In this document: positions 8,082-63,753 of the stretch, one piece after another
How the letters are laid out: the number at the start of each line of letters is the position of its first letter
Numbering within the stretch: the stretch's first letter is position 1
NCBI GenBank assembly: GCA_045862895.1
Contig: BTUO01000005.1
Span: 207,980-271,979, forward strand
Direction of reading: 5' to 3'
Source: Acidobacteriota bacterium
GTDB taxonomy: Bacteria > Acidobacteriota > Thermoanaerobaculia > Multivoradales > JAGPDF01
Length of the DNA stretch: 64,000 bases
Made by a program: the position numbers and the translations under genes
The notes under the pieces: model-generated
What the model was told of the DNA's origin: nothing
The model's input: the letters and a program-made list of their open reading frames with translations, nothing else
Database searches by the model: none

Positions 8082-9728
8082 TCAGTCGGGATTGGCGAGC
8101 TCGAAGCGCAGCAGCCGGAGCCCGGGGCGATCGGCGAGCAGCGTCTCGATCCGGTCGAGCGCCTCGACGGATCCGGACTCGGTCCCCGACGACACCAGTC
8201 CGCCGACACCGCGGACCCCCTCCGCCGCGAGCGGCCCCAGCGCCACGAACCGGCCCGCGGCGGCCGGCTCGATCGCGCCCAGCCTCGCCTCGAGCTCCGG
8301 ATTCGGCACTCGCGACGCGATCACCAGGAACCGCTCGGTGCCGCCGGCGCTCGTCACCTGCCAATCCTGGTCCGCGCCGAGCCGGGACCCGGGCAGGACG
8401 CGAGCCGCGCCCGGCTCGACCGGGTTGCCCTGATCGAGGCCGGAGAGCGGAAAGAGGAGATAGAGCTCGCCGTGCTCGTCCTCGTTGAGGACGTAGAGAT
8501 GGAGCGGCTCCTCGATCGCGACCTCGAGGCGGAGCCGGTCGCCCGGTCGCACGGCGGCGCCGTCGCCGAGGCGTTCGATGTCGTCACCCCGGCGGCGCAG
8601 CAGCACGGCGTCGATCCGCGGCGGCTCCGGCACGACGGCCACGCTCGTCGGGGCGAGCGTCGCAGTCGGCGGACGAGCCACCACTCCGCCCTGCCGCGCG
8701 ATCCAGAACGCGAGAGCGGCGGCGATCAGGATCGCCGCGGCAGCCACCGCGACCGTACGGCCCCGGCGCGGCGGTCCGGCGAGGGTCGCGGCGAGCGCCT
8801 CCGCCATCTCCCCCGCCGAGGCGAACCGTGCCGACGGTTCGCGCTCGAGCGCGCGCTCGACCAGGTGCAGGATCTGGGGTGACAGGTCCGGTCGCAGGTC
8901 GAACAGTCGCCGCCCCCGGCTGCCGCCCTCGCTGGATCTTGGATACTCGCCGCCCAGCAGTCGGTGGAGCAGCGCTCCGAGCGCGTAGAGGTCCGAAGCC
9001 GGAGACGGCGCGGCGCCGGCCAGCACTTCCGGAGCGAGCACGGCCGGCGTGCCGGTGAGCACCCTCACCGGCTCGCCGGCGCGCGCGGCCGGCGCAGCCG
9101 AGCCGAAGTCGGCCAGCACGATCCGCCCGCCGCGCTCGCGCAGCACGTTGGCGGCCTTGAGGTCGCCGTGCACGAGACCGGCGCCGTGGACCGCCGCCAG
9201 CGCGCGGCAGAGGTCGAGTCCGATCGCCGCCGCCTCCGACGGCGAGAGCCGGCCCTCGCGCTCGAGTCGCTGCTCGAGCGACTCGCCTTCGACGAGGTCG
9301 GTCCACAGCCCGACGCGACCGTCGTGGATCGCCGCGCCGTGGACGACCACGACGTTGGGATGCCGGACCTGCGCCAGCCGCTTGGCCTCGGCGAGCAGCT
9401 GCTGGGGCCTCGCTCCCTCGCCGCGCCGCAGCTTGAGCGCCACCTCACGATCGAGCCCGGGCTCCCAGGCGCGATAGACCTCGCCGAAGCTGCCCTGCCC
9501 GAGCCGATCGTGGACCTCGAACGGACCCCAATGGAACAGCGGCTCGGGACGCGTCGACGCCCCGCCCTCCTGGACCGTGCCGAAGGCGCGGGCGATCCCG
9601 GCGATCTCCTCGAGCCGCTCGAGCGCCGGGGACCGATCGGCGCCGGCGACGTCGTCGGGCGGACGCAGCCCGCTCGCCACGCGCTCGGCGGCGGCGAGCA
9701 CCCGCGGGTCCGGCGCGTGCCCGGTCAC
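8082..9728 (-). CDS. Ser/Thr protein kinase with C-terminal extracytoplasmic domain, translationally coupled to ECF sigma factor
   Basis: Hanks kinase motifs (GQGSFGEVY, VALK, HGDLKAANVL, DFG, APE); one TM; ATG overlaps sigma-factor stop by 4 nt. Confidence 0.85.
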   Translation of the reverse strand: MTGHAPDPRVLAAAERVASGLRPPDDVAGADRSPALERLEEIAGIARAFGTVQEGGASTRPEPLFHWGPFEVHDRLGQGSFGEVYRAWEPGLDREVALKLRRGEGARPQQLLAEAKRLAQVRHPNVVVVHGAAIHDGRVGLWTDLVEGESLEQRLEREGRLSPSEAAAIGLDLCRALAAVHGAGLVHGDLKAANVLRERGGRIVLADFGSAAPAARAGEPVRVLTGTPAVLAPEVLAGAAPSPASDLYALGALLHRLLGGEYPRSSEGGSRGRRLFDLRPDLSPQILHLVERALEREPSARFASAGEMAEALAATLAGPPRRGRTVAVAAAAILIAAALAFWIARQGGVVARPPTATLAPTSVAVVPEPPRIDAVLLRRRGDDIERLGDGAAVRPGDRLRLEVAIEEPLHLYVLNEDEHGELYLLFPLSGLDQGNPVEPGAARVLPGSRLGADQDWQVTSAGGTERFLVIASRVPNPELEARLGAIEPAAAGRFVALGPLAAEGVRGVGGLVSSGTESGSVEALDRIETLLADRPGLRLLRFELANPD

Positions 9729-10306
9729 GCCCCCCCCTCGCGCCCGCCCATCGCCTCGGCCAGCCGCGCCAGGGCGCGCGCCGCGCGCATCCGAGCGGCG
9801 TTGGCCGACGGCGCGCCGAGCGCCTCGGCGAGCTCGGCGTGCCGGTATCCGAATTCGACGTTCAGGATCACCGCCTCCTGCTCCTCTCGCGTCAGCGTCG
9901 CGAGCGCCCGCTCGTACCGTTCGAGCAGCTCCGAGCCGATCGCCGCCTCGACCGGCGACCGCTCGCCGCTCTCGAGCTCCGGGTCGAGCTCGACCGCCGC
10001 CGGCCGCCGCGCCGTGCGCCGGATCTCGTCGCGCACGCCGTTGACCAGTGCCTGCCGAAGGTAGGCGAGGAACGCGCCCTCGCGCTCGACCTCGAGCCGG
10101 CCCAGTTGATTCAACGCACGGAGCAGGGTGACCTGCACGAGGTCGTCGGTGTCGGCGTTGCCGCGCGCCCAGGCCGGCAGCCTCCCCCGCCCCCAGCGAC
10201 GCAGGACCGGCAGGTAGCGGGCGAAGAGCAAATCGCGCGCGGCGTCGTCGCCGCGGCGGAGGCGCAGGATCAGCTCCTGGGTCGACTCGGACCGGGGATC
10301 GGACAT
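9725..10306 (-). CDS. ECF (sigma-70 family) RNA polymerase sigma factor
   Basis: Region 2 (DLVQVTLLRALNQL) and region 4 (EQEAVILNVEFGYRHAELAEALG) signatures; about 193 aa. Confidence 0.85.
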   Translation of the reverse strand: MSDPRSESTQELILRLRRGDDAARDLLFARYLPVLRRWGRGRLPAWARGNADTDDLVQVTLLRALNQLGRLEVEREGAFLAYLRQALVNGVRDEIRRTARRPAAVELDPELESGERSPVEAAIGSELLERYERALATLTREEQEAVILNVEFGYRHAELAEALGAPSANAARMRAARALARLAEAMGGREGGA

Positions 10307-10349
10307 CGGCGTCGCGAAGGCGAGCCCGATCCTACCCGGCCCCGACGCA

Positions 10350-13742: not shown

Positions 13743-17186
<3,444 letters not shown>

Positions 17187-17217
17187 GGCCAGTTTCCGGA
17201 GACCGGGTACTGGCAGT

Positions 17218-19143
17218 CTAGCGCGGCGCCTCGCGGCCGTCGGGCGCGATGTCGACCCGCCGACCCGTCTCGCGCAGCCGCTCCGCGAGCCACCTCGCCC
17301 GCCGGCACCCGGGGTCGTCCGCGAGCTTGCGCTCGAGCTCGCGCGCGACCCCTTCGCCGAACGCCGGATCGAGCGCGGCGCGGCCGAGCGTCGCTTCGAG
17401 GTCCTCCGGCTGCACGAAGCGGTAGGGCTCGCCGCTCCAGCCGCCGGCGCCACTGTGCAGGAAGAGCATCGACTCGTCGTCCCAGTCGACGAGCGCCCAG
17501 AGCTCGGGCGGGAACAGCAGCGCGTTGGCGGTCGACTCGCCGACCTGCCGGAAGCCGCCGGCCCCGTCGGGCTCGACCACCGGCACGCGGCGCGTCTCGT
17601 AGCGGACCAGCGCGCCGACCGCGCCACGCCCGGCGAGGAACGCCTCCCAGCGGACGGGGTCGCGGCGCGCAGCGGCGATCTGCCCGAGCAGCTCCGGCTC
17701 GAGCTCCATGCGGCCGTCGACGAACACCCGCCGCGGCGGAAACAGCCGCCAGAGCAGATAGCCGCCGTGAACGAACTCGTTGTAGAGCGGACCGACCTCG
17801 GGATGCGCCGCGAGCACGTTCGCCATCCGCTCGGGAAAACGCCCCGGTGCGACCCCCGTTCCCCAGGCGAGCCCGCCGTGACGCGCGCGCAGCGGCCCCG
17901 ACGACGGCGGCGCCGCGGCCCAGAGCGCGATCGCAGCCGCGGCAGCGATGGCGAGGATGGCCAGCGTCCGCTCGCGGCGAACCGACTCCGGCCGCGCGTC
18001 GGGAATCGCCGCCAGGCACCGCGCGGCCCAGGGCGTCGCGAGTGCGAAGAAGAGCGCCTGGTGGCGCACCCCCGAGAGCGCCAGCGCCGCCATCGCCGCC
18101 GCCGGCAGCCCCCACGCCGGCGCCGGCCAGCGCCCGGACGCCAGCCGCGCGGCCGCAGCCAGGGCCGCGACGATCGCGAAACCGCCGTAGAGGTAGGGCT
18201 GCGGCGCTTCGATCGACGACATCCACTCCGGATTGTGGGCGGAGAGCCCGCCGAGCGCCCGCGCGATCCCGACCGGCACCTCGATCAGTCGCCAGCCGTA
18301 GGGATTGACGAGCAGCGCCGCCGCCAGCAGCGCCGGGACCCCCACGAGCAGCGAGGCCGGGACTCTTCGCGAAGATGCCTCACGCCTCGCTTCGAGCGCG
18401 CGGCCGGCGAGAAACAGGAACGCCACCCCCGGCGCCAGCAGCGCCTGTCCGTGGCAGTTGACCCAGAGCACCACCAGCAGCACGAGACCGACGAGTTCGA
18501 CCCGCATCCCGCGGCGGTGCCGAGCCGTCCCTTCCCGCCATCCTCCGGTGGCCGCGTCGTCGACCACCGCTCCGAGCTCGCGACTCGCCTCCGGGGGCCT
18601 GCTCTTCGACAGCTCGTCTTTGGTCTCTGGTCGTGGAGTCTCTGCCCTCGTCGATCCTTCCCGCCGACTCGCGAGCCGATCGAGCAACAGCAGGAGCGTG
18701 AGCAACGCGAACAGCGTGACGATCTCCGGCCGGACGAGGAAGCGCGGCCGCACACCGAGCAGGCCGGCGAGCGCGAGCAGCCCCGCGAGCCCGGCGCCGA
18801 GCCCCGCCCGGCGGGCGTGGTGGAAGAGCAGCAGCGCGAAGCCGCCGAGCGCCGCGGCGCGCAGCGCGATCAGGCCGTCGAGGCCGGCGACCCGCTCGAC
18901 GCCGTGAACGACGACCTGGAACAGCCACTCGTGATCGACCCAGGCCGCGCCGCCGCTGGTGAACCGGAACGGGTCGACGCGCGGGATCGCGTCGTGCTCG
19001 AGCATCCAGCGCCCGGCCGCGAGGTGCCAGAACAGGTCGCTCTCGAAGATCGGGAAGACGCCGGCGACGACGCCCGCCAGCGCCACGGCCGCGGCGACCA
19101 GCAGGCCGCGGGGGACGACTCGGTGCCTCGTCTCCCCGCTCAT
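17218..19143 (-). CDS. GT-C-fold membrane glycosyltransferase-like protein (ArnT/PMT_2-like)
   Basis: First periplasmic loop FESDLFWHLAAGRWMLEHDAIPRVDPF...WVDHEWLFQ aligns with the ArnT/PMT acidic-loop pattern; at least 10 TM helices; low-complexity insert in the middle. Confidence 0.6.
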   Translation of the reverse strand: MSGETRHRVVPRGLLVAAAVALAGVVAGVFPIFESDLFWHLAAGRWMLEHDAIPRVDPFRFTSGGAAWVDHEWLFQVVVHGVERVAGLDGLIALRAAALGGFALLLFHHARRAGLGAGLAGLLALAGLLGVRPRFLVRPEIVTLFALLTLLLLLDRLASRREGSTRAETPRPETKDELSKSRPPEASRELGAVVDDAATGGWREGTARHRRGMRVELVGLVLLVVLWVNCHGQALLAPGVAFLFLAGRALEARREASSRRVPASLLVGVPALLAAALLVNPYGWRLIEVPVGIARALGGLSAHNPEWMSSIEAPQPYLYGGFAIVAALAAAARLASGRWPAPAWGLPAAAMAALALSGVRHQALFFALATPWAARCLAAIPDARPESVRRERTLAILAIAAAAAIALWAAAPPSSGPLRARHGGLAWGTGVAPGRFPERMANVLAAHPEVGPLYNEFVHGGYLLWRLFPPRRVFVDGRMELEPELLGQIAAARRDPVRWEAFLAGRGAVGALVRYETRRVPVVEPDGAGGFRQVGESTANALLFPPELWALVDWDDESMLFLHSGAGGWSGEPYRFVQPEDLEATLGRAALDPAFGEGVARELERKLADDPGCRRARWLAERLRETGRRVDIAPDGREAPR

Positions 19144-26402: not shown

Positions 26403-27479
26403 TCACACCCGCAGCAGCACCGCGCCCCAATGGAGGCCGGCGCCCAGCGCGGCGAAGGCGACCAGCGAGCCCGGCGGGGCCTTGCCCGCGGCACGGGCCT
26501 CGTGGAAGGCGAGCGGCAACGTCGCCGAGGTGGTGTTGCCCCAGCGCTCGATGTTGTTGAAGACCTTGTCGTCGGGAAGGCCGAGCTGCTTCTGCGCCGC
26601 CTCGTTGATCCGGAGGTTGGCCTGGTGCATCACGAGCAGGTCGAGGTCGTCCTTGCCGTAGCCGTGCTCCGTGAGCAGCGCCAGCGTCGCCTCCGGCATG
26701 CGGGTGACGGCGAGCTTGAAGACCTGGCGTCCCTCCATCACCGGCACGGTGTCGGCGGCTTCGAGCTGCGCGACGTCGACCCACGGGCGGCGCGCGGAAC
26801 CGGCGCCGGGGACGTGCAGGATCGACATGTGGTTGCCGTCGCCGAAGAGCCTGCTGCCCAGGATGCCGCGGCCGTCGCCAGCGTCCGAGGCGCGGAAGAC
26901 CATGGCGCCGGCGCCGTCGCCGAACAGAACGAGCAGGTGACGGAAGCGGTTGTTCCACTCGAGCTCGTCCGCGGAGAGCGGCCCCGGCTCGCGCCCTTCG
27001 ATCACCGCCCAGGTGCGTTCCGAGTAAGGCATCAACGCCGTGTGGACGTCGCAGCCGACCAGCAGGACCGTCCTGGCGATCCCCGAGCGGATCAGCGCGT
27101 CGACCGTCTGCAGTCCGTAGGCGAAGCCGGCGCACTGCTGGCGGATGTCGAGCGCCGGGATCGGCGGCAGACCGAGCTTCTTCTGGATCAGCGTGCCGAC
27201 CCCCGGAAAGTAGTGATCCGGCGTCATCGTCGCGGCGACCAGATAGTCGACCTCGCCCGGGTCGACCCCGGCGTCGGCGAGCGCCGCGCGCGCCGCCTCC
27301 GCGCCCAGGTCCGAGGAACCGACCCCCTTCTCGACGTAACGCCGCTCGCGGATGCCGCTGCGCTCGACGATCCAGGCGTCGTTGGTGTCCATCGCACGCC
27401 CCAGGATGTCGTTGCCGACGACACGCGGCGGTACGGCGATGCCGCTGCCGGCGAGCACGGAGCGCAGCGGAGCGCTCAC
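26403..27479 (-). CDS. fabH: 3-oxoacyl-[acyl-carrier-protein] synthase III
   Basis: Full-length KAS III homology (active-site Cys in ALDIRQQCAGFAYGL, HQAN, N..GNTSSAT motifs); GTG start with GGGGAGG RBS; GTGA overlap with upstream gene. Confidence 0.9.
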   Translation of the reverse strand: MSAPLRSVLAGSGIAVPPRVVGNDILGRAMDTNDAWIVERSGIRERRYVEKGVGSSDLGAEAARAALADAGVDPGEVDYLVAATMTPDHYFPGVGTLIQKKLGLPPIPALDIRQQCAGFAYGLQTVDALIRSGIARTVLLVGCDVHTALMPYSERTWAVIEGREPGPLSADELEWNNRFRHLLVLFGDGAGAMVFRASDAGDGRGILGSRLFGDGNHMSILHVPGAGSARRPWVDVAQLEAADTVPVMEGRQVFKLAVTRMPEATLALLTEHGYGKDDLDLLVMHQANLRINEAAQKQLGLPDDKVFNNIERWGNTTSATLPLAFHEARAAGKAPPGSLVAFAALGAGLHWGAVLLRV

Positions 27480-28060
27480 CGCGGCCTCCCCACCGGCGGC
27501 CGCTGCGTGTAGCGGCCGGGGCGGCCGGGGACGTAGAACTTCGTGACGTCGCCCTGGCGCGCGAACCTGTAGACGCGCTGCGGCCGCTTGCCGTCGAGCC
27601 CCTTCGCCGCGTCGCCCGGGTAGCGCCAGAGCTCGAGCGGCGGCTCGCCGTAGAGATCGCTGGGCTCGAACTCGATCTTCTCCGGTTCGCCGTAGAGCAC
27701 GTAGATCGTGCCGCGGTCGGAGGCGCGGCCGGCGCGCCCCGCCTCGGCGAAGCGCTGGTCGGCCTCGGCGGCGCGGCGCTCGGCGGCCTCGCGCACCGGA
27801 TTGCTCGGGCGTTGCGGGTCGGGATCGCGCACTCCCCAGAAGCGCTCGACGAAGGCGAGCGCCGCTTCGTCGTCGACCAGCGCCGTGAACTCGCGCACCT
27901 CGGCGTCCGTCGCCAGCCGACCGGGCGCGCCCAGCAGCCAGCCGGCGAGCTCCGGCGAGAGCAGCGGATTGAGCAGGTCGACCGCCTCGCGCTCCGCCGC
28001 CGCCAGCGGGGCGGCGACGCCGAGGGCCAGCGCCAGGACGAGCGCGCGGCGGCAGGTCAA
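27476..28060 (-). CDS. Secreted GWxTD-domain-like protein (degenerate motif)
   Basis: FW..RDPDP ... DRGTIYVLYGEPEKIEFEP ... ELWRY matches GWxTD-family layout; TTG start at 28060 with GGAGG 9 nt upstream gives signal peptide; the long upstream extension to 28396 is R/P-rich. Confidence 0.5.
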   Translation of the reverse strand: MTCRRALVLALALGVAAPLAAAEREAVDLLNPLLSPELAGWLLGAPGRLATDAEVREFTALVDDEAALAFVERFWGVRDPDPQRPSNPVREAAERRAAEADQRFAEAGRAGRASDRGTIYVLYGEPEKIEFEPSDLYGEPPLELWRYPGDAAKGLDGKRPQRVYRFARQGDVTKFYVPGRPGRYTQRPPVGRPR

Positions 28061-28668
28061 GACTCGGGCCTCCGCAACAGATCGAGGAACTCCTCGCGCA
28101 CCGGGCGCTGGTGGAAGATGCCGCGGATCGAGGAGGTCACCGTCACCGCCCCCGGCTTCTTGACGCCGCGCATCTCGACGCACAGGTGGCGCGCCTCGAT
28201 CACCACCATCACCCCCTGCGGTGCGAGCTTGCTCTCGAGGTAGTCGGCGACCTGCTCGGTCAGCCGCTCCTGGAGCTGCGGCCGCTTGGCGTAGAACTCG
28301 AGGATGCGGGCGAACTTCGACAGCCCCAGGATCGAGTCGTTGGGAATGTAGGCGAGGTGGGCGTGGCCGTAGAACGGCACCAGGTGGTGGGCGCACATCG
28401 AGTAGAACGGGATGCGCTTCTCCATCACCATCGCGCTGTAGCGCTCCTCGTTGGGGAAGACCGTGATCGCCGGCTCGGCCCCCTCCTGGAGGCCGTGGAA
28501 CATCTCGGCGTACATCTTGGCCACCCGCCGGTCGGTCTCGGCGAGGTTGGGGTCCGCGAGGTCGAGTCCGAGCTCGGTCAGGATGCCGCGGACGTGGCCG
28601 GCGATCCGCTCCAGCCGCTCCGGCTCGAGCAGATCCAGGGCGTTCGGGGAAGTGCTCGTCGGGCTCAT
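28057..28668 (-). CDS. folE: GTP cyclohydrolase I
   Basis: Strong FolE homology (FYSMCAHHLVPFYGHAHLAYIP, LQERLT); ATG at 28668; alternative ATG at 28707 has a better SD (AAGGGGTGGAG) but would overlap the divergent methyltransferase start. Confidence 0.85.
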   Translation of the reverse strand: MSPTSTSPNALDLLEPERLERIAGHVRGILTELGLDLADPNLAETDRRVAKMYAEMFHGLQEGAEPAITVFPNEERYSAMVMEKRIPFYSMCAHHLVPFYGHAHLAYIPNDSILGLSKFARILEFYAKRPQLQERLTEQVADYLESKLAPQGVMVVIEARHLCVEMRGVKKPGAVTVTSSIRGIFHQRPVREEFLDLLRRPES

Positions 28669-28694
28669 CGAATCGATCCTAGCCCACCTTAGAA

Positions 28695-29902
28695 TGGCCG
28701 CCGACATGCTCCACCCCTTCGACCCGGGGCCGCGACCGCGCATCCCCGAAGATCTGCTGGGCGAGATTCCGGAATCGCTCTTCGACGACCGCATCTACGC
28801 TGCCTGCGAGCTCGCCGAGCGTTACGCCACCGATCTCGCGCTCGCGATCGCGCGCCGCCTCGGCCTCGTCGAGCCGCTCGCCGCGGGCGGCACCGCCGCC
28901 ACGCTCGCCGCCGGGCGGGGTTTCGATCCGGCGTTCGAACCCGCAATCGAGGCGCTGCTCGAGCGCCTGGCCGCCGCCGGCGAGCTGGTGCGCGCGGACG
29001 GCGCGAGCGGCCCGGTCTACCGCCGCGACGGTCCAGCGCGAGAGCCCGAGCTCGCCGCGCTGCGCGCGATCGGCATGGCGATCGATCCGCGCATCGTCGC
29101 CACACTCGACCTGCTCGACGCCGCGGCGGCGGCCTGGCCGGCGGTGGCCTCGGGGCGGACCACCGGCGAGAAGGAGCTGTTCTCCGCCGGCTCGATCGCG
29201 CTCTGGCTCGCCTACTTCTCCAACGACAACCCGGTCTACGCGCTCAACAACCTGCTGACCGCGGTGGTGGCGGCGAACCGGCTGCCCGACCGGGAGGGAC
29301 TCTCGGTGCTCGAGGTCGGGGCCGGCGCCGGCGGTTTCACCGCGACCCTGCTCGACGAGCTCGCCCGGCGCGGGCGCCTCGGCCAGGTCGCGCGCTACAA
29401 GCCCACCGAGCCGTCGCCGTTCTTCCGACGGCGCGGCGAGCGCGAGCTCAAGGCCCGCTTCCCGCAGGTGCCGCTCACCTTCCGCGCCCTCGACGTCGAC
29501 CAGCCGTTCGTCGCGCAAGGGCTCTCCGCCGAGCTCCGCGATCTCGTCGTGGGCGTCAACGTCCTGCACGTCGCGCGCGACCTCGGCGCCGCGTTGGCGC
29601 GGATCCGGGAGACCCTCGCCCCGGGCGGCTGGCTGGTCGCGGGTGAGTGCCTGCGCCTCTTCCCGCGCCAGCCGGTGCCGGCCGACCTGGTCTTCCAGCT
29701 CTTCCGCAGCTTCACCGACGTCGGCACCGACCCCGTGCTGCGACCGCACCACGGCTTCCTCGAGCCGTCGGCGTGGCGCACCGCGCTCGAGGCCGCGGGC
29801 TTCGTCGAGGTCGCCGTGGTGCCCGACCTGGAGCGGATCCGCGCGATCTACCCGCGCTTCTTCGCCGGCGTCGTCGTCGGCCGCCGGCCGGTCGTGGGAT
29901 GA
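28695..29902 (+). CDS. Class I SAM-dependent methyltransferase
   Basis: LEVGAGAGGFT glycine-rich SAM motif, methyltransferase fold; start at MAADMLHPF (upstream 80 codons are S/R-rich). Confidence 0.7.
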
Positions 29903-29922
29903 TCGGCGCCGGAGGGGACGCC

Positions 29923-30168
29923 ATGCCGCCCGAGATCACCATCGAGTACTGCGTCGTTTGAAACTACCTGCCCCGGGCCGCCGGTCTGGCGGTCGCGATC
30001 GAGGCGGAGCTGGGATGGAAGCCGGTCTTGATCAAAGGTTCGGGCGGCGTCTTCGAGGTTCGCGCCGATGGCGAACGGGTCTTCTCGAAGAAGCAGGTCG
30101 GCCGCTTCCCGAACCCCGGCGAAGTGATCGAGGCGCTGCGCGCCCGGGCCTCGCCGCCGGCCGGCTGA
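29923..30168 (+). CDS. selW: SelW/Rdx-family selenoprotein (SelW-like), in-frame TGA at 29959..29961 read as selenocysteine
   Basis: MPPEITIEYCVV-U-NYLPRAAGLAVAIEAELGWKPVLIKGSGGVFEVRADGERVFSKKQVGRFPNPGEVIEALRARASPPAG: the CxxU redox motif and the G.FEV..G..VFSKK..GRFP core align with SelW; GGAGGGGA RBS 5 nt upstream; bSECIS-like hairpin 15 nt after TGA. Confidence 0.7.
29976..29994 (+). ncRNA. bSECIS-like stem-loop (7-bp stem ggCCGCC/GGCGGtc, apical loop GGUCU) downstream of the SelW UGA
   Basis: Hairpin begins 15 nt after UGA, apex 22-26 nt from UGA, G and U in apical loop as in bacterial SECIS elements. Confidence 0.5.
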
Positions 30169-30178
30169 GCCCGAATCG

Positions 30179-31306
30179 ATGACGGCGCTGGCGCTGGCCA
30201 CCGCGCTCGCCGCCCTCGCCGTCGCCCTGCGCGCGGCCCTGCCGCGCCTGCGAGCGCCGCGCCTGGCCGCGCCCGAAGACCCCAGCGAATCGACCGCGGT
30301 CGACGTTCTGTTGCCGGTCCGCGACGAGGAGTCGAACGTCGCCGACTGCGTCGCGGCGCTCCTCGCTCAACGGGTCCCGGTGCGCGTCCTCGTGCTCGAC
30401 GACGGCTCCCGCGATGCCACCGCCGCGATCACTGGCGCGCTCGCCGCCGCCGAGCCGCGCGTCGCCTTCGAGCGCGTCCCCGAGCCCCCGTCCGGTGCCA
30501 GCGGCAAGGTCGCGGCGCTCGCCCACGGCGAGCGGCGGACGGCCGGCGACTGGCTGCTGGCGGTCGACGCCGACGCCCGGCCCGCACCGGACGCGCTCGC
30601 GTGCGCCCTCGCCACCGCCCGCGCGCGCTCTCTCGATGCCCTCTCGCTCGCCGCGCGCCAGCGCGCGCCGCGCCCGGGCGAGGCGCTGCTGACACCGCTG
30701 GTCTTCGCCCTGCTCGACGTCGCTCTCGGCGACTGGCGCCGCGCCGCCGACGGCCGCGGCGCGCCGGTGGCCAACGGCCAGTTCCTGTTGGTGCGTCGCG
30801 CCGCGCTCGCTGCGGTCGGCGGCTACGGCGCGATCGCGACCGAACCGCTCGACGACGTCGCGCTCGCCCGCCGCCTGGCGGCGGGCGGATTCCGGGTCGG
30901 CTTCCTGCGCGCCCGCACGGCGCTCGCGGTGCGGATGTACCGCGGCGCCGGGGCGACTTTCCACGGCTGGCGCCGGAACCTGGCGCTGATCTTCGGCGCG
31001 CGCCCCGGCGCGCCGCTCGCCGCCGCCGCCCTGCTCGCCGCCCCCGGTGTCGCGGCGGTCGCGGCGCTCGCCGCCGGCCGCCCCGGGACGGCGCTCGCGG
31101 CCTGGGCGGCGGGCGCGCTGGCTTCCGCCGTCGCCCGCGCGGGCACCGGCAGCTCGCCGCTGTGGGGAGTGCTCCACCCGCTCGACGCCCTCGCTCTGAC
31201 CGGCACGCTGGCGGTCGCCGCCCGGGACCATCGCCGCGGCCGGCTGGCCCGCTGGCGCGGGCGCGACCTGTCGCCCGGCGCCGGGCCCCCGTCCCGGCGC
31301 GCCTAA
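30179..31306 (+). CDS. Family 2 glycosyltransferase (membrane-associated)
   Basis: GT2 DxD region (VLVLDDGSRD ... LAVDADA) and C-terminal TM segments. Confidence 0.7.
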   Translation: MTALALATALAALAVALRAALPRLRAPRLAAPEDPSESTAVDVLLPVRDEESNVADCVAALLAQRVPVRVLVLDDGSRDATAAITGALAAAEPRVAFERVPEPPSGASGKVAALAHGERRTAGDWLLAVDADARPAPDALACALATARARSLDALSLAARQRAPRPGEALLTPLVFALLDVALGDWRRAADGRGAPVANGQFLLVRRAALAAVGGYGAIATEPLDDVALARRLAAGGFRVGFLRARTALAVRMYRGAGATFHGWRRNLALIFGARPGAPLAAAALLAAPGVAAVAALAAGRPGTALAAWAAGALASAVARAGTGSSPLWGVLHPLDALALTGTLAVAARDHRRGRLARWRGRDLSPGAGPPSRRA

Positions 31307-36106: not shown

Positions 36107-36601
36107 TCAGCGCCGCAGGTCGGCGGCGTAGCGGCTCGACTGGCCGGCGGTCTCCTCGATCTCGACCGCGAGCCAGGTCAGCCGCGCGGTCGCGACGTCG
36201 TCGGCGAGCGCGCGCCAGGCCCAGCGCGCCAGCAGCTCCATCGACGTGTTGACCGCCGGCAGCAGCACGACCTCGTCGGCCGGGAAGCGGTACTCGCGCT
36301 CCCCCCAGCGGCATTCGACCGAGTCGCCTTCGATCCGCACCTCGACCGCGGGGCTCCGCTCGGGCAGCAGCACGTGGTCGTCGAGCTCGGCGCAGAGCTC
36401 GCGCACCCGGCGCTTGAGCGCGTCGGTGTCGGCCAGCAGCCCGAGCTCGTCGAGCTCGGGTCCCGCGGCCTCGATCGACATCCGGTAGTTGTGACCGTGC
36501 AGCGGCTCGGCCTCGGTCGGACCGAGCAGAGTGAAGTGCGCCACCGAGAACTTGAAGTCCTGCTTGGCGAGGCGGAGGGTCCAGAGCGGGCGGTCCACCA
36601 A
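36107..36601 (-). CDS. queD: 6-carboxy-5,6,7,8-tetrahydropterin synthase / 6-pyruvoyl-tetrahydropterin synthase family
   Basis: PTPS zinc/catalytic motif region (LHGHNYRMSIEAAG); about 164 aa. Confidence 0.8.
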   Translation of the reverse strand: MVDRPLWTLRLAKQDFKFSVAHFTLLGPTEAEPLHGHNYRMSIEAAGPELDELGLLADTDALKRRVRELCAELDDHVLLPERSPAVEVRIEGDSVECRWGEREYRFPADEVVLLPAVNTSMELLARWAWRALADDVATARLTWLAVEIEETAGQSSRYAADLRR

Positions 36602-36607
36602 GAGATT

Positions 36608-37936
36608 CTACGCGCCGCCACCGAGCGCCGGGAGCGCCTCCTCGAGCGCGTCGAAGACCGCCTCGCAATCGCCGTCGGTCGCGCAGTAGGGCGGCAACAG
36701 GTAGACGACGTCGCCGAGCGGCCGCAGCAGGATGCCGCGCTCGAGCATCGCCCGCGCCAGGAGCGGCCCGCGCGGGTCGAGATAGCCGCCGCCCGGCGCG
36801 GCGTCGAGCTCGACCACCGCCAGCGCGCCGAGGCCGCGGGTCGAGGCGACGCCGGGCAGGGCCGCGATCCTCTCCAGCCGCCGCGCGAACAGCGCCTCGA
36901 GCCGCGCCACCCGCCCGAGCGAACGGTCGCGGTCGAGCAGCTCGAGGCTCGCCAGCGCGGCGGCGCAGGCGATCGGGTTCGCGGTGTAGGAGTGGCCGTG
37001 GAAGAAGGCTCGTCCGCGGTCGTCCGAGAGGAAGTCGGCGTGGATCGCCTCGGTCGCGAGCGTCGCCGCCAGCGGCAGGTATCCGCCGGTCAGCCCCTTG
37101 GACAGGCACATCAGATCGGGCGCGACGCCGGCGTGCTCGCAGGCGAAGAGCCGCCCGGTCCGGCCGAACCCGGTGAAGATCTCGTCGGCGACCAGCGGGA
37201 GGCCGCGCCGCGCGGTCGCCTCCCGCACCGCCCGCAGGTACGCCGGCGGGTGGATCCGCATGCCGCCGGCCCCCTGCACGATCGGCTCGACCAGCACCGC
37301 CGCCACCCGGCCCGCCTCGCGCTCGAGGATCGCCTCGAGCGCGGCGACGCACTCGTCGACCGACCGCCCCCCGACCGGCACCGGCGCATGGCGCACCTCG
37401 CACAGCAGCTCCGCGAAGGCGCCGTGGAACAGCGCCTGCCCCCCCGCCGCCATCGCCCCGAAGGTGTCGCCGTGGTAGCCGCCTTCGAGCGCGACGAACA
37501 GCGTCCGGGCCGGTTCGCCGCGCTGCCGCCACGACTGCACCGCCATCTTCATCGCGACCTCGACCGCGGTCGAGCCGTCGTCGGAGAAGAAGACACGCGA
37601 CAGTCCCGCCGGCGCCCGCCGGACCAGCTCCGCTGCCAGCCGCGCCGCCGGCTCGTGCGTGAATCCGGCGAAGATCACCTGCTCCAGCCGGGCCGCCTGC
37701 GCCGCGATCGCGCGCGCGATCTCCGGCCGCGCGTGCCCGTGCAGGTTCACCCACCAGGACGAGATCCCGTCGAAGATCCGCCGCCCGTCGGCGAGCAGCA
37801 GCCACGCCCCGTCCCCGGCCACCACCGGCAGCGGCGGATCCGCCGTCTTCGCCTGCGTGTACGGATGCCAGACGTGCCGCCGGTCGAGCTCGAGCCACTC
37901 GTCCGCCGTGCCGGGAACATTGCCAGGAGGGATCAC
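36608..37936 (-). CDS. bioA: Adenosylmethionine-8-amino-7-oxononanoate aminotransferase
   Basis: Class III aminotransferase with BioA hallmarks (WHPYTQ, SKGLTGGYLPLAA PLP-lysine motif); GTG start. Confidence 0.9.
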   Translation of the reverse strand: MIPPGNVPGTADEWLELDRRHVWHPYTQAKTADPPLPVVAGDGAWLLLADGRRIFDGISSWWVNLHGHARPEIARAIAAQAARLEQVIFAGFTHEPAARLAAELVRRAPAGLSRVFFSDDGSTAVEVAMKMAVQSWRQRGEPARTLFVALEGGYHGDTFGAMAAGGQALFHGAFAELLCEVRHAPVPVGGRSVDECVAALEAILEREAGRVAAVLVEPIVQGAGGMRIHPPAYLRAVREATARRGLPLVADEIFTGFGRTGRLFACEHAGVAPDLMCLSKGLTGGYLPLAATLATEAIHADFLSDDRGRAFFHGHSYTANPIACAAALASLELLDRDRSLGRVARLEALFARRLERIAALPGVASTRGLGALAVVELDAAPGGGYLDPRGPLLARAMLERGILLRPLGDVVYLLPPYCATDGDCEAVFDALEEALPALGGGA

Positions 37937-38045
37937 GCTCTCAGCTCTCGAAAGACAAGACGGTTCTGTTCAAGACGAATACGAAAGACGAAGTCCAAGA
38001 CTTTCATAGAAGGGAAAGACAGGAACCACCGAAGATTCCTCATCG
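37937..38045 (-). promoter_or_regulatory. Low-GC (about 45%) island immediately upstream of bioA with six GTCTT pentamers and a short uORF whose TGA overlaps the bioA GTG
   Basis: Minus-strand sequence ...cctGTCTTtccc...aaaGTCTTggacttcGTCTTtcgtattcGTCTTgaacagaaccGTCTTGTCTTtcgagagctgagagcGTGA; composition sharply deviates from flanking 72% GC. Confidence 0.4.
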
Positions 38046-38049
38046 AGTG

Positions 38050-38309
38050 CGACAACGACCGTCGCCGGCCGCGACGGCACCCGCCGGACGACCCCCCGCG
38101 CCCGCAGCAAGCCGCCACGACATGCCGGGGACATGTTGCCCGCGCAGCGGGCTACGTGTCCCCGCGATCCCCTGCCGAACGTGGCAATTCGCCGTCCCGA
38201 AGTGCACGCAAAGACGCAGCCCACCCGCGACAACGACCCCAGCCGACCGCGACGGCACCCGCCGAACGACCACCAGCACCCGCAGCAAGCCGCCACGCCA
38301 TGCCGGTCC
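38050..38309. repeat. Two about 80-bp direct repeats (38050-38130 and 38228-38309, about 85% identical) in the bioD-bioA gap
   Basis: cgacaacgacc...cgcgacggcacccgcc[g/a]gacgacc...cccgcagcaagccgccacg[a/c]catgccgg occurs twice, 178 bp apart. Confidence 0.6.
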
Positions 38310-38323
38310 GCCTTCCTCCACAG

Positions 38324-38998
38324 TCAGGCGTCGGGCGAAGCGAAGAGATCTCGCAGGAGGAGATCGTCGATGCGAAACTGCGGATCCGCCTGCAGCGCGG
38401 AAAGCGACAACTCCTCGACCCGCGGCACCTCGGCGACCACCGGCACGCCGCCGAACAGCTCGATCGCCTCGCGGTTGTCCGCGTTCGGCGGCCCCGACAG
38501 CACCACCCCCGCGACCGCGAGCGAACGCCGCCGTGCCGCCTCGAGCGAGAGCAGCGTGTGATTGATCGTGCCGAGCGTCGAACGGGCCACCAGCAGCAGC
38601 GGCGCCGCCATCTGTCGGACCAGCTCGACCTGGAGCGTGCCGGCGTCGTCGAGCGGGACCAGCAGTCCCCCCGCCCCCTCGATCACCCAGCCGTGCTCCG
38701 GCCAGACCGAGCGCATCTCGGCGAACCGCGCCGCGATCCGCGCCAGCTCGATCGGCACCCCTTCGCGCCGCGCCGCCAGGTGCGGCGAGACCGGGTCCGC
38801 GTACAGGTACGCCTCGGCCGGCGCGACCACCCCCGGAACCAGCGCCTCGACCGTCGTGCGGTCGCGCTCGTCCGCCGCGCCGGTCGCGACCGGCTTCCAG
38901 TAGCCGAGCGGCCGCGCGCCGCCGAAGCGTGCCACCAGCAGCGCCGAGACCACCGTCTTGCCGACCCCGGTGTCGGTCCCCGCCACGAACAGCTTCAT
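38324..38998 (-). CDS. bioD: Dethiobiotin synthetase
   Basis: P-loop GTDTGVGKT, BioD-length and motifs; ATGA overlap with bioF stop. Confidence 0.9.
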   Translation of the reverse strand: MKLFVAGTDTGVGKTVVSALLVARFGGARPLGYWKPVATGAADERDRTTVEALVPGVVAPAEAYLYADPVSPHLAARREGVPIELARIAARFAEMRSVWPEHGWVIEGAGGLLVPLDDAGTLQVELVRQMAAPLLLVARSTLGTINHTLLSLEAARRRSLAVAGVVLSGPPNADNREAIELFGGVPVVAEVPRVEELSLSALQADPQFRIDDLLLRDLFASPDA

Positions 38999-40158
38999 CG
39001 ACCCATCTCCTCGGCCACCGCCGCCGCGAGCGCGTCGAGATCGCCGCCCGCATGGTCGGCATGCACCGACAGCCGCAGCCGCGCCGTCCCCTCGGGCACC
39101 GTCGGCGGCCGCACCGCGCGCACGTCGAAGCCGCGCCGCGCGAGACGCTGCGCGATCTCGACCGAGCGCGCGTTGTCGCCGATCAACACCGGCACGATCG
39201 GGCTACCCTGCCGCGCGACCTCGAGCCCGCCGTCCGCCAACGCCCCGCGCAGGCGGCGCGCGTTGACGTGGAGGCGTCCGCGCCGCCCCGGGTCGCGCAG
39301 CACCCGGTCGAGCGCCACCTCGAGTGCGAGGATGAGCAGCGGCGACACCGCCGTGGAGAACACCAGCGCCCGCGCGCGCTGCACCAGACGGTCGATCAGG
39401 AACCGCGGACCGCACACCGCCCCGCCCTGCAACGCGAGCGCCTTACCGAACGTGGTCACCGAAGCGAGCACGCCGCTCTCCGCGCCACACGCTTCGATCC
39501 AACCCGAGCCGCGCGCCTCGCCGTAGAGGCCCGTGGCGTGCGCCTCGTCGACCAGCAGGTGGCATCCGCCCGCGGAGCACAGCGCCGCCAGCTCGCCGAG
39601 CGGCGCCAGGTCGCCGTCCATGCTGTAGAGCGACTCGACCAGTACGAACGTCTCGCCCTCGCGACGCGGGCGACCGAGCTCGCGGCGGACCGCGTCGAGG
39701 TCCAGGTGCGGCACGATCCGCCGCTCGACGCGCGCCGCGCGCAGCGCGTCGATCAGGCTGGCGTGATTGAGGGCGTCGGAGATCACCACGTCGCCGGGCT
39801 CGAACAGGCCGCCCGCGAGCGCCGCGTTGGCCTGCCAGCCGGAGGGCAGGATCAGCGCCGCCTCGGACCCCTTGAAGGCGGCGAGTCGCGCCTCGATGCG
39901 CTCGTGCGCCTCGAGGTGGCCGCGCAGCAGCCGCGACGCCGGTGCGAACAGCGGCGCGCCGGCCGCGGCCGACGCGGCGATGCGCGCCGCGACCTCCGCC
40001 GCGAACGCAAAGTCGCCGGCGAGCCCCAGATAGTCGTTCGACGAGAAATCGATGCCGGCCGGCCGCGCCAGCCGCCGGACCAGCCCGTCCGCCTCGCGCA
40101 CGGCCCGGTCGGCCGCGATGCGCCCCTCGAGGCCGCCGGTGGCGACCGCGCCGCTCAC
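38995..40158 (-). CDS. bioF: 8-amino-7-oxononanoate synthase
   Basis: alpha-oxoamine synthase motifs ([14 protein letters not shown]-lysine in [14 protein letters not shown]); GTG at 40158 overlapping bioB stop (GTGA); the 665-aa ORF N-terminus is R/G-rich artefact. Confidence 0.85.
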
Positions 40159-41150
40159 GCCGGGACCGGCGCCGCCAGCGGCTCGAGCCCGAGCCGTTCG
40201 AGCAAATCGGCGTCGGCGTCGCGCCCCGGGTTCGGCGTCGTCAGCAGTCGCTCGCCGGTGAAGATCGAGTTGGCGCCGGCCAGGAAGCAGAGCGCCTGGG
40301 TCTCGTCCGACATCGCCGTGCGCCCGGCCGAGAGCCGGACGAAGGCCGTCGGCATCACGACGCGCGCCGTCGCGATCGCGCGCGCCATCTCGAGCCCCGA
40401 GACCGGCTCTCGATCCGCGAGCGGCGTGCCGGAAACGGCGACCAGCGCGTTGATCGGCACGCTCCCCGGATGCGGATCCCGCCGCGCCAGCACGCCGAGC
40501 ATGGCGACCCGGTCGGCCACCGCCTCGCCCAGACCGAGGATGCCGCCGCAGCAGACCGAGACCCCCGCCCGGTCGAGCGCGTCGAGCGTGCGCAGGCGGT
40601 CGTCGTAGGTCCGCGTCGTGATGATGCGACCATAGTGCTCCGGGCCGGTGTCGAGGTTGTGGTTGTAGGCGGTCAGGCCGGCGGCGGCCAGCCGCCGGGC
40701 CTGGGCGTCGCTCAGCATGCCGAGCGTGCAGCAGACCTCGAGCCCGAGCTCCGCCACCGCCTCGACCATCGCCAGCACGCGGTCGAACTCCGGGCCGTCC
40801 CTGACCTCGCGCCAGGCCGCGCCCATGCAGAAGCGGGTCGACCCGCCCTCCCGAGCCGCGTGCGCGGCTGCGACCACCGCGTCGAGATCCAGCAGCCGAT
40901 GGCGTTCGACGTCGGCGGCGTGGTGCGCGCTCTGTGGACAGTAGCCGCAGTCCTCCGGGCATCCGCCGGTCTTGATCGACAGCAGCGTGCACAGCTGAAC
41001 CCGCAGCGGATCGTGGTGGATCCGGTGCACCTGCTGCGCGCGGAACAGCAGCTCGGGCAGCGGCAGGTCGTGGATGGCGCGGATCTCGGCGTCGGTCCAG
41101 TCATGGCGCGGACGGCTCGGGTCGAACGTCGGGCTCTCGGACGGCGTCAT
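40155..41150 (-). CDS. bioB: Biotin synthase
   Basis: Radical SAM CxxxCxxC ([10 protein letters not shown]) plus BioB YNHNLDT and C-terminal cluster residues. Confidence 0.9.
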
Positions 41151-41204
41151 GGTCTCCCCGGAAACGGTCGGAAGGGCGGCATTCTACGTGCCGCCCTGCG
41201 GTCG

Positions 41205-54341: not shown

Positions 54342-54860
54342 TCAGGCGCCGGCCCGCACGATCGCCTTCTCGATCGTGCGCCGGTCGGAGATGCCAGTGG
54401 CGCGGAACACCACCCGCCCCTCGCGGTCGGTGACGATCAGCGTCGGCAAGCCCAGGATGCGCAGCCGCACGCTCATCGAATCTTCCGGATCGACCAGGAC
54501 CGGATACGGGTAGGGCTTCTCCGCCAGGAACTCGCGCACGATCTCCTCGGGCTCGCCGACCGAGATCGCGACGAACTCGACGCCGTCGCCACGATGGTCG
54601 GGGTACATCTCGTGGAGGATCTCGGCCTGGAGGTGACAGGGCCCGCACCAGGTCGCCCAGAAGTCGTAGACCACCACCTTGCCGGCGAGGTCGACGGAAC
54701 CGAGCTGGCCGCCGGCGATCGCCGCGAGCCGGAACTCCGGCAACGGCTCGCCGGCACCCTCCGAGGAGACTCTCGGGCCGCAGGCGCCGAGAGCGAGCGC
54801 GAGCGTGAGCAGGGCCGTGGCGCGACGCGCGACGGCGGCAAACGTGCGAGGAGACGTCAT
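54342..54860 (-). CDS. TlpA-like thiol-disulfide oxidoreductase lipoprotein (thioredoxin fold)
   Basis: WATWCGPC active site; lipobox LALGACG. Confidence 0.85.
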   Translation of the reverse strand: MTSPRTFAAVARRATALLTLALALGACGPRVSSEGAGEPLPEFRLAAIAGGQLGSVDLAGKVVVYDFWATWCGPCHLQAEILHEMYPDHRGDGVEFVAISVGEPEEIVREFLAEKPYPYPVLVDPEDSMSVRLRILGLPTLIVTDREGRVVFRATGISDRRTIEKAIVRAGA

Positions 54861-54883
54861 GCCGGCAATCTAGCGGACCGCCC

Positions 54884-55135: not shown

Positions 55136-57916
<2,781 letters not shown>

Positions 57917-58262
57917 TCGTCCTCCCGTCCGTTCCAGGTCGCGGCCCCCGGCCGCCCGCTCTTTTCGATCGCTCCCGCCGACTTGCGGCGCAGGCGGGGC
58001 CCGTGCCTCTTGACGAGTGCCCAGAAACGTGTGCAGTTCTCTGGGAAAGGAAAGGTAAGCCACCCGGGACCCTCTGTCAAGGGTCCGACCCCAAGATGTT
58101 GTGGTTGTCACACGGTCCGACCCCAAGGAGTGGGCGGTTTCGACCTTCGTTGCCGCAGTGCGGCATCGAGCTCGCGAGTCGGCTGCGGCGCGGTTTCCGG
58201 CCCGACCGGGGGGTCCCGGTTGCCGCGCCGCGGCGCCGCCGGGCGGCACCGTCGTGGCAGGA

Positions 58263-59862
<1,600 letters not shown>

Positions 59863-62704: not shown

Positions 62705-62760
62705 CGCCCGTCGACGGCGGGTCCCGTGCGCGCGCCCCCGCGGGATAGGCTCGCGAGCCG

Positions 62761-63753
62761 ATGATCGGACGGCGGCTCGGCCCCTACGAGATCACCGCCT
62801 CGCTCGGCCAGGGTGCGATGGGCGAGGTCTATCGCGCCTTCGACACCCGGCTCGAGCGCGAGGTGGCGATCAAGGTCCTCCCGGCGCGCGTCGCGGACGA
62901 CCCCGAGCGGCTGGCGCGCTTCGAGCGCGAGGCGAGGATCCTGGCCAGCCTCTCCCACCCCAACGTCGCGGCGGTCCACGGCCTGCTCGACCGCGACGGC
63001 GTGCGCGCGCTGGTGATGGAGCTGGTCGAGGGCGAGAGCCTCGAGGCGCGACTCGAAGGCGCGCTGCTGCCGCTCGGGGAAGCGGTGGCGATCGCGCTCC
63101 AGCTCGCCACGGCGCTCGAGGCCGCGCACGAGCAGGGGATCGTCCATCGCGACCTCAAGCCGGGCAACGTCCTGCTGACCGCGGACGGCATCGCCAAGGT
63201 CGTCGACTTCGGCATCGCCAAGTCGGTCGACGAGATCGGGCCGCCGGTGCCACCGGTGCCGCGCTCCGCGGGTGCGCCCGAGCCGTTCGCGGGCACCCGG
63301 CACGGCGACGTGGTCGGTACCGCCGGCTACATGCCTCCCGAGCAGGCCGCGGGGCTGCCGGTCGACAAACGCGCCGATCTGTGGGCCTTCGGCGTGGTGC
63401 TCTACGAGATGCTGTCGGGCCGGCGGCTGGCCGGCGGCGACGCCGCGCCCGAGTCGGTCGACTGGCTCTTCCACCGCGAGATCGACCTCGACGCGACCCC
63501 GGCGCCCATCCTCGACCGGCTCCTCCGCCTGGTCGGCCGGTGCCTCGAGCGCGACCCACGGCAGCGTCTGCGCGACGCCGGCGAGGCGCGCATCGAGCTC
63601 GAGCGCATCCGCGACTGGCTCGACGACCCGGCGAGCCTCGACGCCGTCGCGGTGCGCCGGCCGCACGCGGCGGGAGCCCTCGCCGCCGCGCTCGCTGCCG
63701 GAGTCGTGCTCGGCTGGCTCCTGCACGGCGCGCTCGCGCGGCCGCGCCGCTGA
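62761..63753 (+). CDS. Ser/Thr protein kinase with C-terminal membrane anchor
   Basis: GQGAMGEVY, AIK, HRDLKPGNVLL, DFGIAK, PPE motifs; C-terminal TM. Confidence 0.85.
   Translation: MIGRRLGPYEITASLGQGAMGEVYRAFDTRLEREVAIKVLPARVADDPERLARFEREARILASLSHPNVAAVHGLLDRDGVRALVMELVEGESLEARLEGALLPLGEAVAIALQLATALEAAHEQGIVHRDLKPGNVLLTADGIAKVVDFGIAKSVDEIGPPVPPVPRSAGAPEPFAGTRHGDVVGTAGYMPPEQAAGLPVDKRADLWAFGVVLYEMLSGRRLAGGDAAPESVDWLFHREIDLDATPAPILDRLLRLVGRCLERDPRQRLRDAGEARIELERIRDWLDDPASLDAVAVRRPHAAGALAAALAAGVVLGWLLHGALARPRR

Follow-up and report, generated by a model that had tools for sequence, protein, structure and literature searches.

The question raised by this locus is whether a TGA triplet at positions 29959-29961 ends a reading frame or encodes selenocysteine (Sec) within one. 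The triplet lies in a 64-kb stretch of acidobacterial DNA, here called the window (64,000 nucleotides, 73% GC). The first-pass annotation had proposed an overlooked SelW/Rdx-family selenoprotein gene, which starts behind a strong ribosome binding site, carries TGA as codon 13 and is followed closely by a bacterial-type SECIS (bSECIS) hairpin. Direct reading of the DNA bore out the frame and its signals. A Shine-Dalgarno sequence, GGAGG (29911-29915, plus strand), stands 7 nt ahead of the ATG at 29923, and the coding sequence (29923-30168, plus strand; 81 residues and a stop, GC3 0.88) runs to a terminator at 30166-30168. Its recomputed translation is identical to the one quoted earlier, MPPEITIEYCVV-U-NYLPRAAGLAVAIEAELGWKPVLIKGSGGVFEVRADGERVFSKKQVGRFPNPGEVIEALRARASPPAG. 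The TGC codon of Cys10 (29950-29952, plus strand) opens a CxxU redox motif and is invariant in 82 of 82 Sec-form homologues. The TGA on the plus strand at residue 13 is the predicted Sec codon, judged by its conservation and by its alignment with CxxC proteins.

The mechanical list of open reading frames contains at this locus only a 104-residue ORF ending at the Sec TGA (29647-29961), as had been described, and a 46-residue ORF with a TTG start beyond it. That automatic annotation would miss the gene also proved correct: in the gene call of L008, an assembly identical to the window at this locus, the place of the gene is empty.

The proposed family membership was confirmed by profile searches, in which the U of the query was swapped for C. 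The protein scored 63.9 bits with Pfam Rdx (PF10262; cutoff 22.6), residues 4-73 matching profile positions 1-73 of 74, and 56.8 bits with TIGR02174 CXXU_selWTH (cutoff 34.2). The equivalog cutoff of NF041051 SelTWH_Campy (88 bits) was missed by 0.5 bit (87.5 bits), therefore the gene is filed at the family/subfamily level only. PDB sequence matches (3DEX, 2FA8, 2OKA, 2OJL, 2OBK, 2P0G) have CxxC opposite the CVV-UGA of the window. An alignment of U with the Cys of homologues had been suggested as a check, and C10-V-V-U13 indeed aligns with the CTQC of 3DEX and 2FA8.

The structure was modelled on P0003, the closest full-length Cys homologue (62% identical), as a proxy for the window protein. 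In the AF2 model (pLDDT 91.2) the order of elements is b1-CxxC-a1-b2-b3-b4-a2, and CxxC is located after the strand formed by residues 4-9 and before the helix formed by residues 15-29. Foldseek searches with this model returned bacterial SelW-related structures with TM scores of 0.80-0.87, and thioredoxins ranked next, weakly. As judged from the proxy, the protein would have the thioredoxin-like b1-a1-b2-b3-b4-a2 fold. The product is predicted to be a small thiol/selenol oxidoreductase, for which we infer a redox function.

Conservation of the TGA was assessed in a homologue scan using one genome per species. Relatives were found in at least 589 genomes, and 80 loci were kept. The best relatives, with 68-73% identity, are from Acidobacteria/Thermoanaerobaculia metagenome-assembled genomes (MAGs). 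The codon at the Sec position is TGA in 79 of the 80 species-level genomes and TGC in one. These loci span about 14 phylum-level labels: Acidobacteriota, Gemmatimonadota, Planctomycetota, Calditrichota, Zixibacteria, Krumholzibacteriota, Eisenbacteria, Fibrobacterota, KSB1, Myxococcota, deltaproteobacterial groups, Hydrogenedentota, Bacillota and Burkholderiales. When metagenome loci were included, 116 of 137 distinct loci had TGA, and the other 21 were Cys forms.

In 82 homologues the sequence on both sides of the TGA varies mostly at third codon positions, as coding sequence does. Column entropies at codon positions 1/2/3 were 0.77/0.67/1.35 for the eight codons 5′ of the TGA and 0.63/0.51/1.13 for the segment 3′ of it, and the leader was flat at about 1.6. 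Counted back from the TGA, Ile-6 and Cys-3 are invariant and Tyr/Phe-4 is fully conserved, an IEYC block that stays in frame. In 79 of 82 genomes a start codon precedes the TGA by 10-12 codons. The locus shows one mark of a bacterial selenoprotein gene, an in-frame UGA opposite Cys with coding sequence on both sides. TGA is also the stop codon of 27 of the 35 supported genes in the window, including the terminator of the SelW-like gene itself, which indicates that the genetic code is not reassigned. Taken together, the conserved TGA, its coding flanks and the use of TGA as an ordinary stop argue against a pseudogene, against a separate downstream ORF and against a reading as Trp or Gly.

The hairpin is formed by a 5′ arm at 29976-29982, a GGUCU loop at 29983-29987 and a 3′ arm at 29988-29994 (plus strand), and it sits inside codons 18-24 (R-A-A-G-L-A-V). 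The earlier description of a 7-bp stem-loop was right for the window, where G29976-C29982 pairs with G29988-C29994 with one G.U pair. As a description of the conserved element it was too long: of the outer two pairs, one does not form in 26 and the other in 33 of 81 homologues, thus the conserved stem has only 5-6 bp, with a core at 29978-29992. The start of the stem 15 nt after the UGA and the G and U of the apical loop were both as had been reported. The distance from the UGA to the loop is 21 nt (29962-29982), and the register is the same in all 81 aligned homologues.

According to published criteria, a bSECIS is located inside the ORF, its apical loop separated from the UGA by 16-37 nt (PMC10778597), and has a small apical loop with a conserved G (GU) on an upper stem of 5/6 bp (PMC1088965, PMC4607533). 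The window hairpin agrees with both the distance and the shape of loop and stem.

Folding energy did not distinguish the hairpin from dinucleotide shuffles (MFE z = +0.44 and +0.48); in DNA of 73% GC, stability alone is therefore not evidence for it. The comparative data were more informative. They came from a gap-free alignment of 81 sequences, in which the stem columns (28-33/39-44) and the loop columns (34-38) are occupied in every sequence. Stem cells were paired in 86.1% of cases, compared with 77.2 ± 0.8% in shuffles (0/500 reached the observed value) and 20.6-58.0% in slid registers. The covariation score was 0.247, compared with 0.093 in shuffles (0/500) and 0.03-0.085 in slid registers. 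Two pairs join third codon positions. Pair 30-42 occurs as CG in 54 sequences, GC in 11, UG in eight, UA in three, AU in two and GU in one, and is unpaired in two; pair 33-39 occurs as CG in 75, GC in three, UG in two and AU in one, and is never unpaired.

The 5-nt loop has the consensus RGUYU. Its G is invariant in the 81 homologues, because a Ser at this place is always encoded by AGY and never by UCN. The U is present in 73 of 81, supplied by a GGT or AGT codon, and within the window GGT makes up 8.7% of Gly codons and AGT 0.4% of Ser codons. Covariation at synonymous sites and a loop GU held in rare codons indicate that the hairpin is more than chance, and the comparative data support its interpretation as a putative RNA element. 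Other searches were less productive. RNAalifold predicted only four pairs for the 81-sequence alignment, with a consensus energy of about zero, and found no other conserved pairing in the 48 nt 3′ of the UGA. The Rfam SECIS models gave no match at the gathering threshold, nor at E ≤ 10 on positions 29900-30080; an Rfam match is not a defining feature of bSECIS elements, and the Rfam models do not cover the SelW-type element.

Sec and Cys forms were then compared with the help of a metagenome scan in which matches were ranked against a Cys form. The 116 distinct loci with TGA had on average 5.16 of the 6 stem pairs and a GU in the loop in 103 cases, whereas the 21 distinct Cys loci had on average 2.71 of 6 pairs and a loop GU in two cases, a contrast partly confounded because most Cys forms belong to a separate subfamily (CxQCRW...RAAWMAQE). 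The two Cys forms closest to the Sec clade are L089, which keeps 4/6 pairs, and L027, which keeps 6/6. The latter (L027, 10019-10075; Myxococcales MAG JAJYLH01) is the sole Cys form among the 80 genomes and retains, despite its TGC codon, all six stem pairs and the GGUCU loop. It has the look of a gene that changed from Sec to Cys recently and still carries a fossil SECIS.

The Escherichia coli fdhF SECIS, whose sequence was checked in 5,413 genomes, likewise forms a small hairpin closely following the UGA. It has the same GGUCU apex as the window element, translated in both cases in an Ala-Gly-Leu frame. The G and U of the fdhF loop are known contacts of SelB. The two elements differ in that the apex in the window is one codon (3 nt) further from the UGA, its closing pair is C-G instead of A-U, which results in a 5-nt loop as opposed to the 4-nt loop of fdhF, and the window element shows no conserved bulged U and no conservation of a lower stem.

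We weighed these data against other explanations of the interrupted frame. It could be a pseudogene, in which a Cys codon mutated to TGA in a dead or decaying gene. Gene callers do leave the locus empty or truncated, and Sec machinery was not seen within the window. A decaying gene would hardly show the same TGA in 79 of 80 species genomes over many phyla, an intact frame with ribosome binding site and start codon, flanks that evolve as coding sequence on both sides and a locus that is intact in three near-identical assemblies (L001, L002, L008), and we assign this explanation next to no probability. An extremely unlikely explanation is that only the downstream part is translated, as a product of 46-52 residues from an internal TTG, CTG or ATG, and that the first 12 codons are an untranslated leader. 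Prodigal-type callers annotate relatives in this way (P0001, P0002, P0005, P0018), but no internal start is conserved: the window has CTG and L001 has ATG. Such a product would lack strand b1 and the whole CxxU motif, although the Rdx domain covers residues 4-73. It is also at odds with the third-position bias of the eight codons 5′ of the TGA and with the conserved I, Y/F and C encoded there.

The TGA might also be read as an ordinary amino acid, either by reassignment to Trp or Gly or by near-cognate read-through independent of a SECIS. W does appear at this position in several public gene calls, but these calls trace back to TGA in the DNA and are caller artefacts. TGA ends most supported genes of the window, and the base composition of the window is unlike that of the code-4/25 lineages. 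A CxxW motif would make no redox sense, the solved homologues having CxxC, and such a reading would give no account of the conserved SECIS-type hairpin. We regard ordinary decoding as highly unlikely. Finally, the gene could encode a selenoprotein, with the hairpin at 29976-29994 being a by-product of the peptide A-A-G-L-A written in GC-rich codons and the true SECIS being elsewhere or of a different kind. The near-zero MFE z (about +0.4), the weak alifold consensus and the lack of an Rfam match speak for this, as do the overlap with the conserved peptide A-A/S-G/S-L-A and an inner stem made of positions 1-2 of Ala codons, which the peptide dictates. The compensatory changes in pairs 30-42 and 33-39, by contrast, fall on synonymous third positions, and the slid-register controls collapse. 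The loop Ser is always AGY, the loop Gly uses GGU despite a genomic codon bias to the contrary, and the 48 nt after the UGA hold no other conserved pairing. Position and loop moreover fit the published bSECIS criteria (PMC10778597, PMC4607533) and fdhF. On balance a by-product hairpin is very unlikely, and the locus is, with high probability, a genuine selenoprotein gene with the 29976-29994 hairpin as its SECIS.

On this selenoprotein reading, translation would begin at the ATG at 29923. At the UGA (29959-29961), Sec would be inserted in place of termination by a SelB.GTP.Sec-tRNASec complex anchored on the mRNA hairpin (29976-29994). The ribosome would then continue to the real stop at 30166-30168 and release an 81-residue SelW-like thioredoxin-fold protein with a Cys10-x-x-Sec13 redox motif.

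We searched the window for the machinery that such decoding requires. It contains no tRNA-Sec, and ARAGORN found no tRNA gene at all in the 64 kb. Six-frame motif screens for SelD (GxGCK) and for the EF-Tu-type GHVDHGK did not reveal a SelD or SelB signature in the window, and none of about 45 window ORFs matched the Pfam families of SelA, SelB or SelD. Neither sel genes nor tRNA-Sec were found beside the homologues (up to 84 loci searched). Acidobacteria are recorded users of selenoproteins (PMC1794560). The SelW-like gene itself indicates that the genome probably has the Sec-decoding trait; from the same gene we infer actual Sec insertion, SelB binding and the presence of selA, selB, selC and selD in the genome. 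A window-wide scan for further in-frame TGAs flanked on either side by coding signal, which is blind to N-terminal Sec sites and missed the SelW-like gene itself, gave a single match, an ordinary gene junction at 26405. tRNA genes were scarce around SelW-like genes in general: about 1 Mb of flanks (60 loci) contained two, fewer than expected from the typical tRNA density of bacteria.

The SelW-like gene is tightly packed between two genes of the same strand. The stop codon of a class I SAM methyltransferase gene (Methyltransf_12/23; 28694-29902, plus strand; L008 gene call and Pfam) lies 20 nt 5′ of its ATG, and a family 2 glycosyltransferase (GT2) gene (Glyco_transf_21/Glycos_transf_2 by Pfam; 30179-31306, plus strand) starts with an ATG 10 nt 3′ of its stop. 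Four Acidobacteriota relatives (L009, L011, L012 and L021) have the same methyltransferase-SelW-GT2 order, and the three genes would be co-transcribed. This putative operon is divergent from folE-GWxTD-FabH. The whole arrangement (26403-31306), FabH-GWxTD-folE on the minus strand followed by methyltransferase-SelW-like-GT2 on the plus strand, is found in the same four relatives, Acidobacteriota/Thermoanaerobaculia MAGs with 52-92% protein identity. In L007 folE adjoins the Rdx gene directly, without the methyltransferase.

Such an arrangement invites the idea that in Thermoanaerobaculia-like Acidobacteriota the SelW-like protein is a dedicated redox partner of the methyltransferase and the glycosyltransferase instead of a free-standing antioxidant. 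We consider this idea speculative and rather unlikely. If true, it would for the first time place in a pathway a bacterial SelW-like protein, the substrate of which has been obscure for 20 years.

Other features of the window were also recorded. A cofactor cluster on the minus strand (36107-41183), 8 kb from folE, encodes a 6-pyruvoyl-tetrahydropterin synthase family protein (PTPS), an Aminotran_3 aminotransferase, a BioD-like AAA_26 protein and a BioB-like Radical_SAM+BATS protein. At 55139-59862 two divergent neighbours encode B12 enzymes, a class II (B12-dependent) ribonucleotide reductase (minus strand) and a methylmalonyl-CoA mutase (plus strand), with domains starting around residue 320 and residue 272 of the respective ORFs; a cobalamin riboswitch was nevertheless not found at the Rfam gathering threshold. 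Three Ser/Thr protein kinase genes are present in the 64 kb (8085-10331, minus; 13746-18284, minus; 62749-63750, plus), among them a kinase-TPR/MalT-like ORF that is very large (about 1,500 codons from stop to stop) and one gene with DUF4384. The gene at 54345-54869 (minus strand) encodes a thiol-disulfide oxidoreductase of the Redoxin/AhpC-TSA family, which has known Sec members; it is intact without an in-frame TGA, and is therefore a Cys form.

Descriptions of bacterial SelW-like selenoproteins and of their SECIS elements date from 2005-2006 (PMC1088965, PMC1794560). These proteins were the most abundant selenoprotein family of the Sargasso Sea set, for which the bacterial SECIS was also figured (PMC1088965), and in Sec-using organisms they are mostly without Cys homologues (PMC1088965, PMC1794560). 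The gene described here shares with them a length of about 80 residues, a b1 strand followed by CxxU, the GGVFE, FSKK and GRFP blocks, and an in-frame UGA with a hairpin within the ORF. Nothing essential sets it apart; it belongs to an uncultured Acidobacteriota/Thermoanaerobaculia-like genome, and its methyltransferase-SelW-GT2 operon is conserved in that clade. NCBI keeps dedicated models for bacterial SelW-like selenoproteins. The solved Rdx CxxC proteins (3DEX SAV_2001, 2FA8 Atu0228, 2OBK, 2OKA, 2OJL, 2P0G) have the same fold and motif position, but they have Cys for Sec, are longer (about 100-108 residues) and belong to the CxQCRW...RAAWMAQE-like subfamily. Cys-form loci of this type mostly lack the SECIS-type hairpin, unlike the window gene.

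Mouse SelW (2NPB) has the thioredoxin-like Rdx fold in common with the P0003 model (Foldseek TM 0.68). The CxxU of mammalian SelW consists of Cys10 and Sec13, the positions found in the window protein. Sequence similarity is too low for phmmer, which did not match the window protein to mammalian SelW at E ≤ 0.01. In eukaryotes the SECIS is located in the 3′ UTR as a kink-turn element and is recognised through SBP2/EFSec. In contrast, the element of the window is a small hairpin in the ORF, 21 nt past the UGA.

SelW-like genes are often overlooked by annotation (PMC4607533), and the public gene sets contain several kinds of error at these loci. In L001, L002 and others the gene is shortened so that it starts after the TGA. 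ENA/JGI calls have Trp at the Sec position (P0004, P0006, P0007, P0009, P0012-P0016, P0020 and P0021). In L007 the codon under the Trp call (1154-1156) is TGA, which marks the call as an artefact of a table-4-type caller that puts false CxxW sequences into databases. Two further protein calls read G (P0010) and L (P0008) at the Sec position.

The family is an ordinary one, known since 2005, and knowledge of selenoproteins or recoding is unchanged by this locus. What the analysis offers is an annotation correction for a gene that public gene sets lack, truncate or mistranslate with Trp. The 81-sequence SECIS alignment could seed a covariance model with which missed SelW-like genes might be recovered in MAGs. 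For an uncultured, Acidobacteriota-like organism such as this one, the SelW-like gene is probably a cheap marker of selenocysteine use.
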